IMG/VR virus record: IMGVR_UViG_3300011116_001229
DNA: 64,000 nucleotides
Origin: a virus
Lineage: Duplodnaviria > Caudoviricetes
Direction: 5' to 3' (one strand)
Part shown: positions 56,054 through 64,000 of the stretch, in pieces
How positions within the stretch are numbered: the stretch's first letter is position 1
How the letters are laid out: every line of letters begins with the position of its first letter
Notes under the pieces: generated by a model
Told to the model about the DNA's origin: nothing
Database searches by the model: none
The model's input: the letters and a program-made list of their open reading frames with translations, nothing else
Made by a program: the position numbers and the translations under genes

Positions 56054-56233
56054 ATGAAACAATCGAAGATCTCGGTCGATGAAGAGACCCATAAATTGCT
56101 GAAGATATACTGTGCTCAGCACGGTCTGATTATGAGTCAGTTCACCGCCGAGATCATTCGAGAGAGGATTGGCAATGAAAGAGAAGATCTGCGCACAATG
56201 CGAAAAGAAATTTGTGCCAAAGAATCCATTTAG
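56054..56233 (+). CDS. Small ribbon-helix-helix-type DNA-binding protein
   Basis: KISVDEETHKLLKIYCAQHGLIMSQFTAEII has the strand-helix-helix pattern. Confidence 0.6.
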   Translation: MKQSKISVDEETHKLLKIYCAQHGLIMSQFTAEIIRERIGNEREDLRTMRKEICAKESI

Positions 56234-57068
56234 TAATAAGTCTGGTTTCTTCTTTTGCTCGAAAGAGTGCACTTATCTTGCTCAGAAGAAGGGCGGTGTC
56301 ACATATGAGCTCCGTCGAAAGAGGTCACTAGAGAAGCACGGCACCGACTTTCCAATGTCTTGCCCTGAGATAAAGAATAAGCGCAGCAACAACAACATAA
56401 AAAAGTACGGTGTTGCCAGCACGTTTGAACTTGATTCAGTCAAAGAGAAGTCAAAAAAGACTTCACGTGAGAAATATGGGGTTGATGTTTACTCACAAAC
56501 AACAGAATTCAAGTCCAAGATCGAAGAGACAAATCTAAAGAGATTCGGACATAAGTCTCCGATAGAAAATCCCAACATTCTAGAACGACGACGGCAGACA
56601 ATGATCGACAGATGGGGAGGTCCATCAACTTTCGAATCACCTGTTCTACGAGCTCGCGCTGAAGATACCTGTATTGAAAAGTTCGGAGTTCATAATATTG
56701 TCTTATCGCCGACGTTTATCTCTTCTTCCATGGATAAGAAACTGCTCAAATCACATGGAAAAACTTGGCAGCAGTACATCGATGACCTACCTGAATTTCA
56801 GGATTATCGAAGAAAAGTCGATCACTTTACACGCATGCAGCCGATCGAACAGCTAGCCAATCATGATAAACGTGGTGAATATCATCTCGATCACAAGTTT
56901 TCAGTCGCTGAAGGGTTTAGACAAGGTCTACCACCCGAGGTGATAGGTCACATTGTGAATCTGGAATTCATACCGGCTGCAGAAAATCTTCGAAAACAGT
57001 CAAGTTGTTCAATTGACAAAGACGCATTACTATCAGAATACTCAACTAGAAAGGTAAATCAAAGATGA
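56175..57068 (+). mobile_element. Putative HNH homing endonuclease with (E/K)K(Y/F)G repeats
   Basis: CAQC...CSKEC; repeats EKHG, KKYG, EKYG, KRFG, DRWG, EKFG; C-terminal YHLDHKFS...NLEFIPAAENLRK. Confidence 0.7.
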
Positions 57069-59776: not shown

Positions 59777-59878
59777 CGTGTAAATAACTAGTATGTGTGT
59801 GATGTTCTCCATATTTATAATGAGTCTCGAGAAAAGATACGGCCTTGTGCCGTAACTATTTGACCACCGGAGGAAACA

Positions 59879-60772
59879 ATGGAGAGTAAATGTGAAGTTT
59901 GCGGAATTAGCATAGAATCAAAACCAAGACTACGTACTTGTTCAAAAAAATGCGGTTACGTGTTGAGAAGTCGTACTAGAAATATAAAACATGAGCCTGT
60001 TGAAAAGATATGTCTCGACTGCGAGTGTAATTTTCAAGATACTTCAAAAAAGAAGTTAGTCGTTAGATGCAAACCATGCATAAACAATTCCATGGTTGCT
60101 ACACGTTACGCAAGAGGAAGCTATGAGCGCTCAGAAGAGCAGAACGAGAAATTGTCTATTACGCTTAAGACAAAGTACGAATCAGGATGGAACCCTAACA
60201 CTGAAGAGCATCGAGAAAAATTATCCGAGGGAATGAAGGCTCGCTGGCAAGATGGTTCAATGAGAAAGAAGTCGGTTGCAACAACGCTTGAAAAGTATGG
60301 AGTTGAGCACTGGGCGCAGTCTGAAGAAGGAAAGACAGTGCTATCACAGAGGTCAAGAGGCAGAAAATTTTCTGATGAAACTCGTAAAAATATGAGTCAA
60401 GGCGCTGCAAGGCGCATTAGAGAGAATAATAATCATTATGAACGAGGTAATGGAGGTTTTAGAGAAGACCTCGGACACTATGTACGGAGTAACTGGGAAG
60501 CTAATTTTGCTAGAATATTAAAAATTCAAGGAAAGTCTTACGAATACGAACCTAAGACATTTCAAATTGCTGAGGATAAAACGTATACACCCGATTTTCT
60601 TGTCGATGGTATTTTCTACGAAGTTAAAGGCTATTGGACCGAAAAATCGAAACTTAAATTAGAATCATTTGTAAAAATATATCCCGAAATAGAATTGCAA
60701 ATCATCGACGGCACAAAGTACAATGAGCTTAGAGAAGCTTACCAAGATCTAATTCACTGGGAAGGCAAATAA
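59879..60772 (+). mobile_element. Free-standing putative homing endonuclease (Zn-binding N-terminus, NUMOD3-like repeats, PD-(D/E)xK domain)
   Basis: CEVC...CSKKC; HREKLSEGM and ETRKNMS repeats; VRSNWEANFA...YEYEP...YTPDF...YEVKGY. Confidence 0.75.
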
Positions 60773-60775
60773 TAA

Positions 60776-63700
60776 ATGAACAGCACAAAGGAGAAGAGCT
60801 ACTTGAAGCTTGAGTCCGTGCGACCTCCTACTCGGTTTGTGGGGTTTCACGCGCACTCAGGCTTCTCGTAAAGTTACGACATTTGACGGTTTGGGTTACC
60901 CTGCAGATCACATTGCCTTTGTCACCTCTGAGTCACAAGGCATGGATGCCTGGGCACTGACAGATCACGGCAATGGCAACGGACTTGCACACGCACATTC
61001 TGCTGCCAAGAAGATTCAGAAGAAAGGTGTGAAGTATCGACAGCTCTACGGCGTGGAGTTCTACTTCGTTCCTTCACTTTCGCAGTGGCGTATCGATTAC
61101 GAGGCCCACAAGCAATCAGTCAAGGACGCGAAGTCTGCAGCTGAGGCTGAGAAGAAAGCAAAGATTCGAACTGACATCGACGCTGACGAGGCAGCAGAGG
61201 AAGAGGAGGCCGGTGGCCACGTCGTGGAGGATGAGGCAGAGACGAAGGCCGACGACTACAAGGAGAAGCCTGACTGGCAGCGTCGTTACCACCTCGTGGC
61301 AGTGGCGCAGTCAGCTGAGGGGCTCGCGAACATCAACCGTCTCGTCAAGGCATCATTTAAAGACGGATTCTACCGTTATCCACGCATCGACTTCGACCTC
61401 CTCAGAAAGTGGGGCAAAGGGATCGTGTGGTCGAGCGCCTGCCTCGGCGGAACAATGGCGGGTACAATTCTACGAGGCGTAGCACATAATAGAACTTCTG
61501 AGCAAATTATTGCTGATCTTGAAGTTCTCACAGGTCAGTTCGTCGAAGCAGTCGGCCAAGAGAACTTCTTCCTCGAACTGCAATTCAATAAGCTCGAGAA
61601 ACAACACACCGTAAACAAGTACCTCATCGACCTGTCTCGAAAGACCGGTGTGAAGCTGCTGGCCACATGCGACTCTCACTATCCAGATCCCTCCAAGTGG
61701 CAGGCCCGTGAGCTCTACAAGAAGCTGGGCTGGATGGGCACGAAGCTAGACGAGCAAGCACTACCGAAGTTCGAGGACCTGAAGTGCGAGCTGTATCCCA
61801 AGAACGCTACCCAGATGTGGGACGAGTTCAAGAAGTCCTACGAACAGTACGACTTCTACAAGGGTTCCGAGGAGGAAGTTCGTGACGCGATCGAGCGGAC
61901 TCACGACGTCGCTTGGCAGCATTGCGAGGACACTTGGGTCGATGTGAAACCAAAGCTGCCCAAGGTCGACACACCAGAAAAAACAGCATTCCAGCAGCTC
62001 ACTGAGCTTGTTAAAGAAGGTCTTACCCGCGAAGGTCTTGCTGATAAGCCTGAGTATGTCGATCGAGCTAAATATGAGCTCGGAGACATCAAATATCTGA
62101 ATTGTGCTTCTTACTTCATTACGATGTATAAAGTGTTCAATCTTGCGAAGGAGAAGACGCTCTTTGGAAGCGGCCGCGGGAGTGGTGCGGGATCGCTCGT
62201 CAACTTCCTGTTAGGCATCACGCAGATCGATCCGATACCATACGGTTTGCTTTGGAGCAGATTTTTAGGACGACACCGAGTGAGCTTTCCGGATATCGAT
62301 ACAGACGCAGGTGACAGGGATGTCCTTATCGATGCGGCACGAACTCTGTTCGGCGATGACGCCGTGATCCCGGTGTCCAACTTCAACACCCTGAAGCTCA
62401 AGTCCCTCGTCAAGGACATCGCCAAGATCTACGGCGTGCCCTTCGAGGAGGTGAACGAGATGACCGGCCCTCTCCAGGACGAGGTGATGCCGCTGGCTCG
62501 AGACGAGGACCAGGAGAAGTCGGTCTTCGTGCTGAAGCATGAGGACTGCATGAAGTACTCGCCGAAGTACACGGCCTTCATGGAGAAGTATCCTGACGTT
62601 GCTGCACACGTCGAGACACTGTTCATGCAGAACAGGTCCATCGGAAGGCATGCAGGAGGCGTACTCTTAGCAGATCCTGAAGATCTTGCTGCAAACATGC
62701 CTATCATTGGCGTCAGAGGCGAGCTGCAGACACCGTGGACAGAGGGTATGAACTTCCGCAATCTGGAGGATAACGGCTTCTTGAAGTTTGACTTCCTAGG
62801 TCTCACGCTTCTCAAAGATGTCGAGAACTGCATTAGACGCATTCTCATCAAGAATGGCAATCTTGATCCTACCTTCCTGGACATTAGAGGCTTCTTCGAC
62901 AAGCATCTAAACTGTCGATACGTGAAGCAGGACGATCCTGCTGTGTGGAAGCATGTCTACCAGGACGGCTCGTTTGTGTCAGTCTTCCAGATGACTGCAG
63001 AGGGTGCTCGGAAGTTCTGCAAGGCAGTTAAACCGACGAAGATCGAAGACCTCACAGCTATTACAGCGATCTACCGCCCTGGGCCTCTCAAAGCAAACGT
63101 GCACAACCTCTTTGTCGAAGCTAGAAAGCTTGACAAGATCAATTACCCACACCCAATCATCGAGCAAGTCCTTGGACCTACGAAAAATTTCGTTGTGTAT
63201 CAGGAACAATTTATGTTGTTAGCAGAAAAACTAGGTGGCTTTACACCTGGTGAAGCTGATCAGCTGCGCAAGACGCTAGTTAAGAAGTCGCTTGACACGC
63301 TGGACAAAAAGTCATCAGAGAAGGAGCTTGCTAAGCAGAAGTTTATTGAGGGTGCTCAGCGACTTCACGGAGTTCCTCCAGAAGTGACCGAGCCTCTTTG
63401 GCAAACAATTGACAACATGAGCGTCTATTGTTTCAATAAATCCCACAGTTTAGCATATGCTATCGATTCCTACTATGCAGCATGGCTTCATACACACTAC
63501 GAGAAAGAGTGGCTGGCAACTGCACTTCAATCAGCTTCCAGCAACCCAAAAGAACTTGCGAAGACGATCTCCGAGATCAAGGCGTTAGGCTTCAAGTTCT
63601 CGAAGCACGACATCAACTACTCGGGCAAGGAGTGGCAGTTCTCTGAGGAGGCCGATGCTTTCGTGCCGCCTCTCGGTTCAGTGAAGGGAATTGGATCTGC

Positions 63701-64000
63701 AGCAGTTGAAGAGATCATGGCGAACAGGCCCTACAAGGATCTAGCTACTATGCTCTATGACGACGCAGGTGAGTGGCGACACAGCAAGGTGAACAAGACA
63801 GCTCTGTCAGCTCTTTGCAAGATTGATGCGCTTTCTTCTTTGGAAGATTTTAATCTAGGTAGAGTTAATAATCATAAGCAACTTCTAATGGCTTTGACAG
63901 ATGACAAGAATTACGAGATGCTTCGACGTGGTCTCTACGGCCTGACTGCATCGCAGCTGAAGAAGAAAGCTAAGGCCGGCGAAAAGATCGAAGCTTTCTT
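60776..64000 (+). CDS. dnaE: DNA polymerase III alpha subunit; frame interrupted at 60869-60878; truncated by the window end
   Basis: Frame 0 gives M...FVGFHAHSGFS*. The +1 frame from 60879 gives TFDGLGY...LTDHGN...GVEFY...SACLGG...CDSHY...GRGSGAGSLV...FPDIDTD...HAGGV...KFDFLGL...YQEQFM...FNKSH and is open to 64000. Confidence 0.92.
60866..60879. other. 10-nt stop-containing insert with a 6-bp inverted repeat
   Basis: TCGTAA-AG-TTACGA; deleting TAAAGTTACG restores HAHSGFSTFDG. Confidence 0.75.

Follow-up and report, generated by a model that had tools for sequence, protein, structure and literature searches.

The DNA polymerase gene dnaE on a 64,000-nucleotide stretch of phage DNA (IMG/VR record IMGVR_UViG_3300011116_001229; hereafter the window, meaning the whole stretch analysed) is broken within its first conserved motif by ten nucleotides (nt) that begin with a stop codon. 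Judged by comparison with related sequences, these 10 nt are probably an untranslated coding gap, crossed by a programmed ribosomal hop and tied to a homing-endonuclease cassette. The break is real and beyond chance; the same motif carries stop-containing gaps in dozens of related loci. The source of the window is an uncultured freshwater phage, and no cultured relatives were found (a megablast search of GenBank phages gave no match, and tblastn matches reached at most about 30% identity).

The 5' segment of dnaE (60776-60868, plus strand) encodes an N-terminal extension of the cassette type described below and the first motif of the PHP domain, RFVGFHAHSGFS. The open reading frame (ORF) at 60776-60871 translates as MNSTKEKSYLKLESVRPPTRFVGFHAHSGFS and then ends, its final sense codon being TCG 60866-60868, the putative take-off codon, and its stop TAA 60869-60871. 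An alternative start, TTG 60803, lies 9 nt downstream of AAGGAG. The gap, TAAAGTTACG (60869-60878, plus strand), opens with this TAA, which would occupy the ribosomal A site at take-off, and closes with ACG 60876-60878, a near-cognate candidate landing triplet that is the sole triplet with a central C within the gap and directly adjoins the resume codon, ACA 60879. The dinucleotide CG is repeated on both flanks of the gap. From ACA 60879 the remainder of the gene (60879-64000, plus strand) reads TFDGLGYPADH in the +1 frame; it lacks its own start codon but stays open to the end of the window, more than 1040 codons past the gap. It holds the rest of the PHP domain, the polymerase core, the fingers and the HhH region, with Pfam matches to PHP, DNA_pol3_alpha, finger and HHH_6.

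An earlier note on this DNA had held that removing exactly 60869-60878 gives the canonical PHP motif, and this is borne out by the sequence: the deletion yields HAHSGFS-TFDG and a gap-free alignment with the uninterrupted relatives L018 and L045. The restored spacing equals that of the L018 motif, which aligns ungapped to Pol III alpha of Thermus aquaticus (PDB 2hpi). The metal site of the PHP domain is complete, with nine ligands (HxH, D, H, E, H, C and DxH). The HxH lies upstream of the gap; the other seven ligands (D3, H30, E60, H138, C188, D265 and H267), which the note had described as intact, are invariant in alignment A2. Also present, as the note had said, are the ACG before the resume codon, an endonuclease gene that ends 3 nt before the dnaE ATG at 60776, and a strandless 14-nt inverted repeat (TCGTAA-AG-TTACGA, 60866-60879) that as RNA allows a stem of at most 5 base pairs (bp) with a 4-nt loop.

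The 10 nt are not a misassembly, because contigs of three independent studies carry them unchanged. The window stretch was found in runs from nine studies, and contigs from runs X3, X4 and X11, whose samples came from a lake, a river and other water, span 60866-60884 with zero differences and zero gaps; assembly error, which the note had proposed to check with sequence data across the insert, is thereby ruled out. An alternative genetic code is likewise rejected: with the standard code (table 11), long ORFs take up 92% of the window, and TGA, TAA and TAG all serve as their stops. No tRNA genes were found within the window's 64 kb, hence no suppressor or special tRNA-Ser is encoded there. A second contig from run X4, from the same sample, merges with the window at 60906; its sequence upstream of the merger, AGC ACC TTC GAC GGA CTC GGC TAT CCA GCC (S-TFDGLGYPA), suggests a related and probably gapless allele that co-occurs with the gap-bearing phage.

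To place the break among its relatives, we collected 217 loci, many of them mutual duplicates, in three scans of IMG/VR and of JGI/ENA metagenomes; their DnaE proteins are 50-86% identical to that of the window. Most of these loci have an uninterrupted motif, and in the close relatives (about 100 sequences) the spacing from HxHS to F/YDG is always 12 nt (xFS plus T or V). Twelve gap versions, of 5, 9, 10, 12, 38, 40 and 68 nt, occur at one or the other Ser codon of HxHS-xFS/T. Written as take-off codon, gap in brackets and resume codon, the short versions are TCG[TAACG]ACC at 5 nt (L063, L129); TC(C/G/A)[TAG(G/A)TATCT]ACN (many marine loci), TCC[TAATAATCT]GTA (L215) and TCC[TAATAAACC]GTT (L118) at 9 nt; TCG[TAAAGTTACG]ACA (the window), TCC[TGAAT(G/A)GTCT]ACA (L020, L067, L113), TCC[TGAATAATCT]ACT (L178) and TCC[TGAGAAAGCT]GTT (L080) at 10 nt; and TCG[TAAATAAAATCA]ACA at 12 nt (L017). 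The remaining versions form hairpins and lie one Ser codon earlier, between HAHS and GFS: a 38-nt gap (TCG...TCG) in L024, the window's closest relative, a 40-nt gap (TCG...TCA) in L058 and L060-62, and a 68-nt gap (TCT...TCA) in L021.

A stop codon stands immediately 3' of the TCN (Ser) take-off codon in 11 of the 12 versions, the window included, and in all 12 the terminal triplet of the gap, just before the resume codon, equals the take-off codon at positions 2 and 3. The match is full or wobble (TCN to TCN) in eight types; the other four, those of the window, L063, L118 and L080, mismatch at the first position, the window's UCG and ACG agreeing at two of three. Within each of the nine short gaps no triplet other than the landing triplet has a central C, and no premature landing triplet is present. 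The window's pairing of TCG with ACG recurs in L063 and L129 across 5 nt. Alignment A3 shows the short gaps to be insertion/deletion variants of one A/T-rich spacer, and the gaps of L178 and L215 (10 and 9 nt) are alike except for one G. With lengths of 5, 9, 10 and 12 nt, the gaps in homologous cassettes fall in all three frames. Gaps in every frame, two of them one base apart, therefore call for a frame-independent mechanism.

We propose that peptidyl-tRNA-Ser, sitting in the P site on UCG 60866-60868 with the stop UAA in the A site, would un-pair, that the mRNA would slide by 10 nt, and that the tRNA would re-pair with ACG 60876-60878 through two G-C pairs, at the cost of only a weak U-A pair. 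Decoding would resume at ACA 60879 and give a single DnaE chain with the canonical HAHSGFS-TFDG, and the junction peptide is predicted to contain no extra residues (...HAHSGFSTFDGLGYPADH, ...FVGFHAHSGFSTFDGLGYPADH). Stated generally, peptidyl-tRNA-Ser would leave UCN when a stop is in the A site and re-pair at the first xC(N) triplet downstream; in the gaps of 38-68 nt, folding of the hairpin would shorten the path to about the same effective length. The bypass that the earlier note had suggested, with take-off at TCG and landing at ACG, gains support from the recurrence of this pair in L063 and L129, from the spread of frames and, as described below, from the co-occurrence of gap and endonuclease gene, and on these sequence grounds we consider it the probable reading.

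The rival that survives best, recoding without a hop, is in our view unlikely. It would entail a +1 frameshift in the window and the other 10-nt gaps, readthrough at 9 and 12 nt, and a -1 or +2 shift at 5 nt, with DnaE gaining one to four loop residues (for example, HAHSGFS-KVT-TFDG). In its favour, every short gap leaves the downstream frame open, +1 shifting is known to be stimulated by a stop in the A site, and a distant DnaE clade tolerates one extra residue in the loop, but recoding would require three or four mechanisms within one homologous cassette family, and it leaves both the landing-triplet match and the lack of other central-C triplets unexplained. There is no slippery site, UCG U gives no +1 re-pairing, about 100 close relatives never carry sense-codon insertions at the motif, and within the window's 64 kb no suppressor tRNA is found and all three stops are used as gene ends. 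Neither a single frameshift, such as the -2 slip that the note had listed as an alternative, nor readthrough explains gaps of 5, 9 and 10 nt in three frames.

Substitution patterns on the two sides of the gap bear on whether the gene is read as one. Over the first 105 codons after the gap, the ratio of nonsynonymous to synonymous substitution rates (dN/dS) between gap-bearing genes is 0.03-0.12, with synonymous sites near saturation. Before the gap, the nine codons RFVGxHxHS show 428 synonymous against 124 nonsynonymous differences in 91 pairs of gap-bearing genes, in agreement with the note's suggestion that the upstream HxH is still under selection. The 21 codons from the gap to the first in-frame ATG (60942) keep the core FDGLGYP-DHI-F despite many synonymous changes, and none of the gap types has an in-frame ATG, GTG or TTG after the gap and before codon 22. 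Taken together, the low dN/dS, the synonymous excess, the invariant ligands and the ungapped fit of the motif to 2hpi argue that both parts are translated and selected within one PHP domain, though no start codon follows the gap.

These patterns are difficult to reconcile with a truly split gene, which we regard as quite improbable. In that case a 31-residue HxH peptide and the remainder would be made separately and assemble, or the remainder alone, begun at a non-canonical start or at ATG 60942, would suffice. The lack of start codons after the gap and the conserved core ahead of ATG 60942 both oppose it, as does the place of the HxH strand as the first core strand of the PHP barrel, and no intein or other joining domain is present. 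Protein-level selection on the 5' mini-ORF would admittedly suit a separate functional peptide as well, and this phage group tolerates a fractured dnaE, there joined by split inteins (PMC2677866). The internal start at ATG 60942, which the note had offered as an alternative, is not supported: the codons before it are conserved, the upstream exon is under protein-level selection, and the Met itself varies within the family, being absent from L054.

The palindrome that the note had pointed out is not common to the family. The 5-bp stem of the window (-3.4 kcal/mol, z = -1.2) is not significant, RNAalifold gave no consensus structure across 23 short-gap sequences, and minimum free energy per nt differs little between gap-bearing and gapless alleles (p = 0.053). 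Strong hairpins are found only in the 38-68-nt versions, where the stems of L024 and L058 differ by one compensatory change from C-G to U-A. The 68-nt gap of L021 (1058-1124) forms a perfect 23-bp hairpin (-51 kcal/mol, z = -8.7) whose 5' arm spans the HS codons and the take-off codon. Where the other versions have a stop next to the take-off codon, this one has the start of the hairpin, and an in-frame stop is not reached until 5 codons past take-off; in this version the hairpin, not the stop, may act as the stall signal.

The window's 14-nt palindrome and the strong hairpins of some relatives, such as L021, speak for removal of the gap from the mRNA, as a micro-intron, by endonuclease-ligase splicing or by editing. 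We hold this to be very unlikely: gaps of 5-12 nt whose sequences are unrelated and which share no structure offer an RNA-processing enzyme no handle, the ribosomal hallmarks (a stop right after a sense codon, a matching landing triplet) would go unexplained, and we know of no such RNA-removal system in phages. That dnaE is a pseudogene or dispensable, its gap being damage from endonuclease activity, is scarcely credible, for although error-prone repair at a nuclease cut could make short insertions with 2-nt flanking repeats (CG...CG in the window), dN/dS is low with saturated synonymous sites between gap-bearing genes, the ORF stays open long after the gap, and the gap persists across diverged lineages and many samples.

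Comparison of the loci shows the gap to be part of a mobile cassette that invades dnaE at the first PHP motif. Besides the gap, the cassette holds the gene for the homing endonuclease, a fresh start codon that adds an N-terminal extension to DnaE, and a version of the 5' exon recoded by synonymous changes. In the marine loci the first element is the original 5' exon of dnaE, which breaks off after ...HSHSTF and is closed by a stop; there follow a conserved left-end string, the endonuclease gene, a new ATG with the N-terminal extension (MNNTFNTERRYLEKVEL...), a second copy of RFVxLHxHSTFS, the gap, and TFDG with the rest of dnaE. The window, unlike the marine loci, has no old-exon remnant; its N-terminal extension has homologues in L118, L017 and the marine cassettes. 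Its left-end string, AACTAGTATGTGTG at 59786-59799, is common to the left ends of cassettes in relatives, and a string resembling AAAACTTAGTATGTG stands after the old-exon remnant in marine loci and before the endonuclease gene in L063. The earlier note was correct that the endonuclease gene adjoins dnaE, but it is no mere neighbour: the marine cassette lies inside dnaE, with its own 5'-exon copy and the old exon left upstream.

Closely related loci display the cassette as a discrete insertion. L070 differs from L040 by an insertion of 1150 nt with flanks that are 96-98% identical. The old and new exon copies within one genome differ at 10-14 of 39 nt, and nine distinct pairs of copies show 79 synonymous versus 7 nonsynonymous codon differences. 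At its Gly/Ser and Ala/Ser positions the new copy mostly has the state of the host backbone (six of nine pairs agree at both), even where the Ser codons differ (TCT versus AGC). Gap loci are dispersed over the DnaE tree, where their sister is often a near-identical gapless locus; the gap state requires at least 8 changes for the 9-nt group, and L060, with a 40-nt gap, is sister to L063, with a 5-nt gap and the endonuclease gene.

Homologues of the endonuclease (44-68% identical, alignment A1) lie directly upstream of seven different gap types, and dnaE backbones that are nearly identical may either have or lack the gene. In the set of loci that remained after removal of duplicates and that extended far enough upstream, an endonuclease gene, complete or partial, accompanies 18 of 27 gap loci versus 2 of 53 gapless ones (Fisher p = 1.9e-9, not corrected for relatedness); the note had predicted such co-occurrence for dnaE 5' ends with and without the endonuclease. 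Several lineages have lost most of the nuclease while retaining the extension, exon copy and gap: L036, L097 and L044 retain only the last codons of the endonuclease ORF, and L058 and L060-62 about 25 codons of it. The gap would break an endonuclease target that the recoded exon copy would otherwise rebuild at the right-hand junction, so that the carrier would be protected from its own nuclease. We infer this immunity role from the architecture of the cassette, by analogy with MobA and gene 60 of phage T4.

The endonuclease gene of the window (59879-60772, plus strand; 297 residues) encodes two four-Cys ribbons, a helical middle part predicted to bind DNA, and a C-terminal PD-(D/E)xK domain of the T7 endonuclease I type. 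The residues E207, D239 (TYTPDF), E248 and K250 (EVKG) are invariant in nine homologues at 44-68% identity. The protein matches PHROG 945 'endonuclease' (E 2.4e-13) and falls 0.1 bit short of the cut-off for Pfam PF05367 (Phage_endo_I; 29.0 versus 29.1 bits). An AlphaFold model is confident for the C-terminal domain (predicted local distance difference test scores of 84-93 across most of residues 201-290), and its top PDB fold matches, weak at E 2e-3 or weaker, are all PD-(D/E)xK proteins (T7 endonuclease I, Bax1, TnsA and I-Bth0305I). Ahead of the gene, the cassette left end and 5' untranslated region (59777-59878, plus strand) contain the left-end string, a small hairpin and GGAGG before the ATG. 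In many loci the string CGTGTAAA precedes dnaE and the endonuclease gene; in the window its 3 matches, against 1.3 expected, do not amount to enrichment, and we therefore make no promoter claim for it; a scan for the sigma-70 consensus gave nothing useful.

Several observations weigh against a programmed hop or limit how far the comparisons can carry it. The landing triplet of the window is a near-cognate one (ACG for UCG), as in L063, L118 and L080. Because the gap types are related by descent, they count as fewer than 12 independent trials. The search for stimulators turned up, for the short gaps, neither a conserved take-off hairpin nor a Shine-Dalgarno-like element nor a common nascent-peptide signal. 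Synthetic stop-hops in E. coli are inefficient. The length of the motif loop is not absolutely fixed in the wider family, because a more distant DnaE clade (L190, L197, L199-L210; junction near 2001) has a 15-nt spacing and one extra loop residue, HAH[S/C]GTGSP-YDG. Nor is the gap obligatory for the cassette, because L054 (3019-4010) has a full endonuclease gene and an upstream old-exon remnant (RFDIHTHSSFS), with the new copy joined gaplessly in a diverged motif, HNHSDFSPYDG; either L054 has lost its gap or synonymous recoding alone confers immunity. Finally, no RNA runs containing the dnaE gene were found among the runs matching the window; a single run carries the label 'RNA?', but its coverage is limited to 60600-60682 and it probably represents DNA.

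The dnaE gaps are probably a short-range counterpart of the T4 gene 60 bypass. In both systems a homing-endonuclease cassette sits in an essential replication gene, substitutes for the displaced exon a homologous copy with an N-terminal extension, and places after it a gap, which in dnaE is probably untranslated; a stop directly follows the take-off codon, the landing triplet agrees with that codon (in dnaE at least at positions 2 and 3), and some lineages keep the gap after loss of the nuclease. The gene 60 family is characterized by a slow A-site codon, a matched landing site and no premature landing triplets (bioRxiv 10.1101/2022.08.31.505936); P-site re-pairing there tolerates mismatches, and take-off shifts between neighbouring codons (Manning & Atkins, bioRxiv 10.1101/2022.08.31.505936), much as take-off in dnaE moves between two adjacent codons in different lineages. 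The two elements nonetheless share no sequence homology. The host gene is dnaE rather than a topoisomerase gene and the nuclease PD-(D/E)xK rather than HNH as in MobA; the gaps are 5-12 nt, or 38-68 nt in the hairpin versions, as against about 50 nt in T4; the take-off codon is Ser instead of Gly or Asp, with four gap types mismatched at the first landing position; and the dnaE gaps, unlike gene 60, gave no sign of a conserved take-off stem-loop, of a Shine-Dalgarno element in the gap or of a nascent-peptide signal.

Synthetic stop-hops in E. coli, laboratory constructs that included hops of +5 and +6 (Weiss et al. 1987, reviewed in Atkins et al. 2016, PMC5009743), resemble the hop proposed for dnaE in that peptidyl-tRNA makes a short hop over a stop to a matching codon a few nt downstream, whereas the dnaE gaps occur in nature, are conserved and go together with a mobile element. 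The 2016 review of recoding knew of no natural in-frame stop-hop (PMC5009743). The mitochondrial byps of Magnusiomyces capitatus and the phiHau3 terminase bypass are natural coding gaps that likewise tolerate imperfect take-off and landing matches and have a slow A-site codon (PMC5009743; PMC10732093). They differ in that byps are mitochondrial inserts of 27-55 nt and phiHau3 uses a rare UUA codon, and neither has been described with a homing-endonuclease cassette in dnaE. In the literature that we searched on bypassing with dnaE or homing endonucleases we found no report of a dnaE gap, and bypass cassettes are described there only in topoisomerase genes.

A further comparison is with the 'fractured genes' of environmental phages, dnaE included, in which free-standing homing endonucleases lie between split-intein halves (Dassa et al. 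2009, PMC2677866). These too come from uncultured aquatic phages, target dnaE, break at a conserved motif and have a free-standing endonuclease with a hairpin in its 5' untranslated region; the hairpin at 59838-59854 in the window (TACGGC-CTTGT-GCCGTA), ahead of the endonuclease gene, resembles those (PMC2677866). Fractured genes, however, are joined by protein trans-splicing, whereas the window break has no intein and the join would have to occur during translation; a stop-containing gap in dnaE is not among the features that Dassa et al. described (PMC2677866).

Split inteins do occur at two other dnaE sites in the window's relatives. In L018 (5560-6800) dnaE is split at ...FLGRHR/C, the intein N half starting with CLQKDSLVLTENG and the C half ending ...THN/TSWPDIDSD, with a gene for a 306-residue free-standing endonuclease between them; this arrangement is of the fractured-gene type of Dassa et al. 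(2009). Matches in L021, L031, L032, L036, L053 and L054 likewise stop near residue 470, and the equivalent site in the window (around 62330) is uninterrupted. A third dnaE interruption, in L033, L035 and L051, falls at the PHP cysteine (STAC/LGG), about 500-2000 nt past the junction at 2004-2006; there a free-standing endonuclease ORF separates the N half of an intein (CLHPDT...) from its C half, which ends ...LVHN/CLGG. One gene can hold two selfish elements, since L033 carries this intein and a 9-nt gap in a single dnaE. Elsewhere in the window, 56169-57068 encodes a second homing-endonuclease-like protein of 299 residues (DUF7487 with an HNH-like C-terminus; PHROG 3339 'homing endonuclease'); the gene overlaps the start of a nucleoside 2-deoxyribosyltransferase gene, and L018 has an 85% identical copy in the same place.

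To our knowledge, natural programmed bypassing has been described in very few systems: T4 gene 60 and its topoisomerase homologues, the byps of yeast mitochondria, and one Streptomyces phage terminase. It is fairly likely that the dnaE gaps add a natural, widespread family of stop-hops, spanning 5-12 nt (or 38-68 nt folded into hairpins), in which two 3' codon positions suffice for landing and single-base insertions and deletions are tolerated, and which is kept by protection from self-cutting. Such a family would be a second independent origin of the gene 60 type and the first natural stop-hops. It would also be a ready-made mutational series in which gap length, landing-triplet identity and the presence of a hairpin could be read as requirements for a ribosomal hop. 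Gene callers split or truncate gap-bearing genes, and essential phage polymerases are therefore mis-annotated as pseudogenes or N-terminally truncated proteins. If the reading is true, the arrangement typified by gene 60 and MobA, in which a selfish nuclease breaks its own target and the ribosome mends the message, would be a general evolutionary solution, not a one-off.

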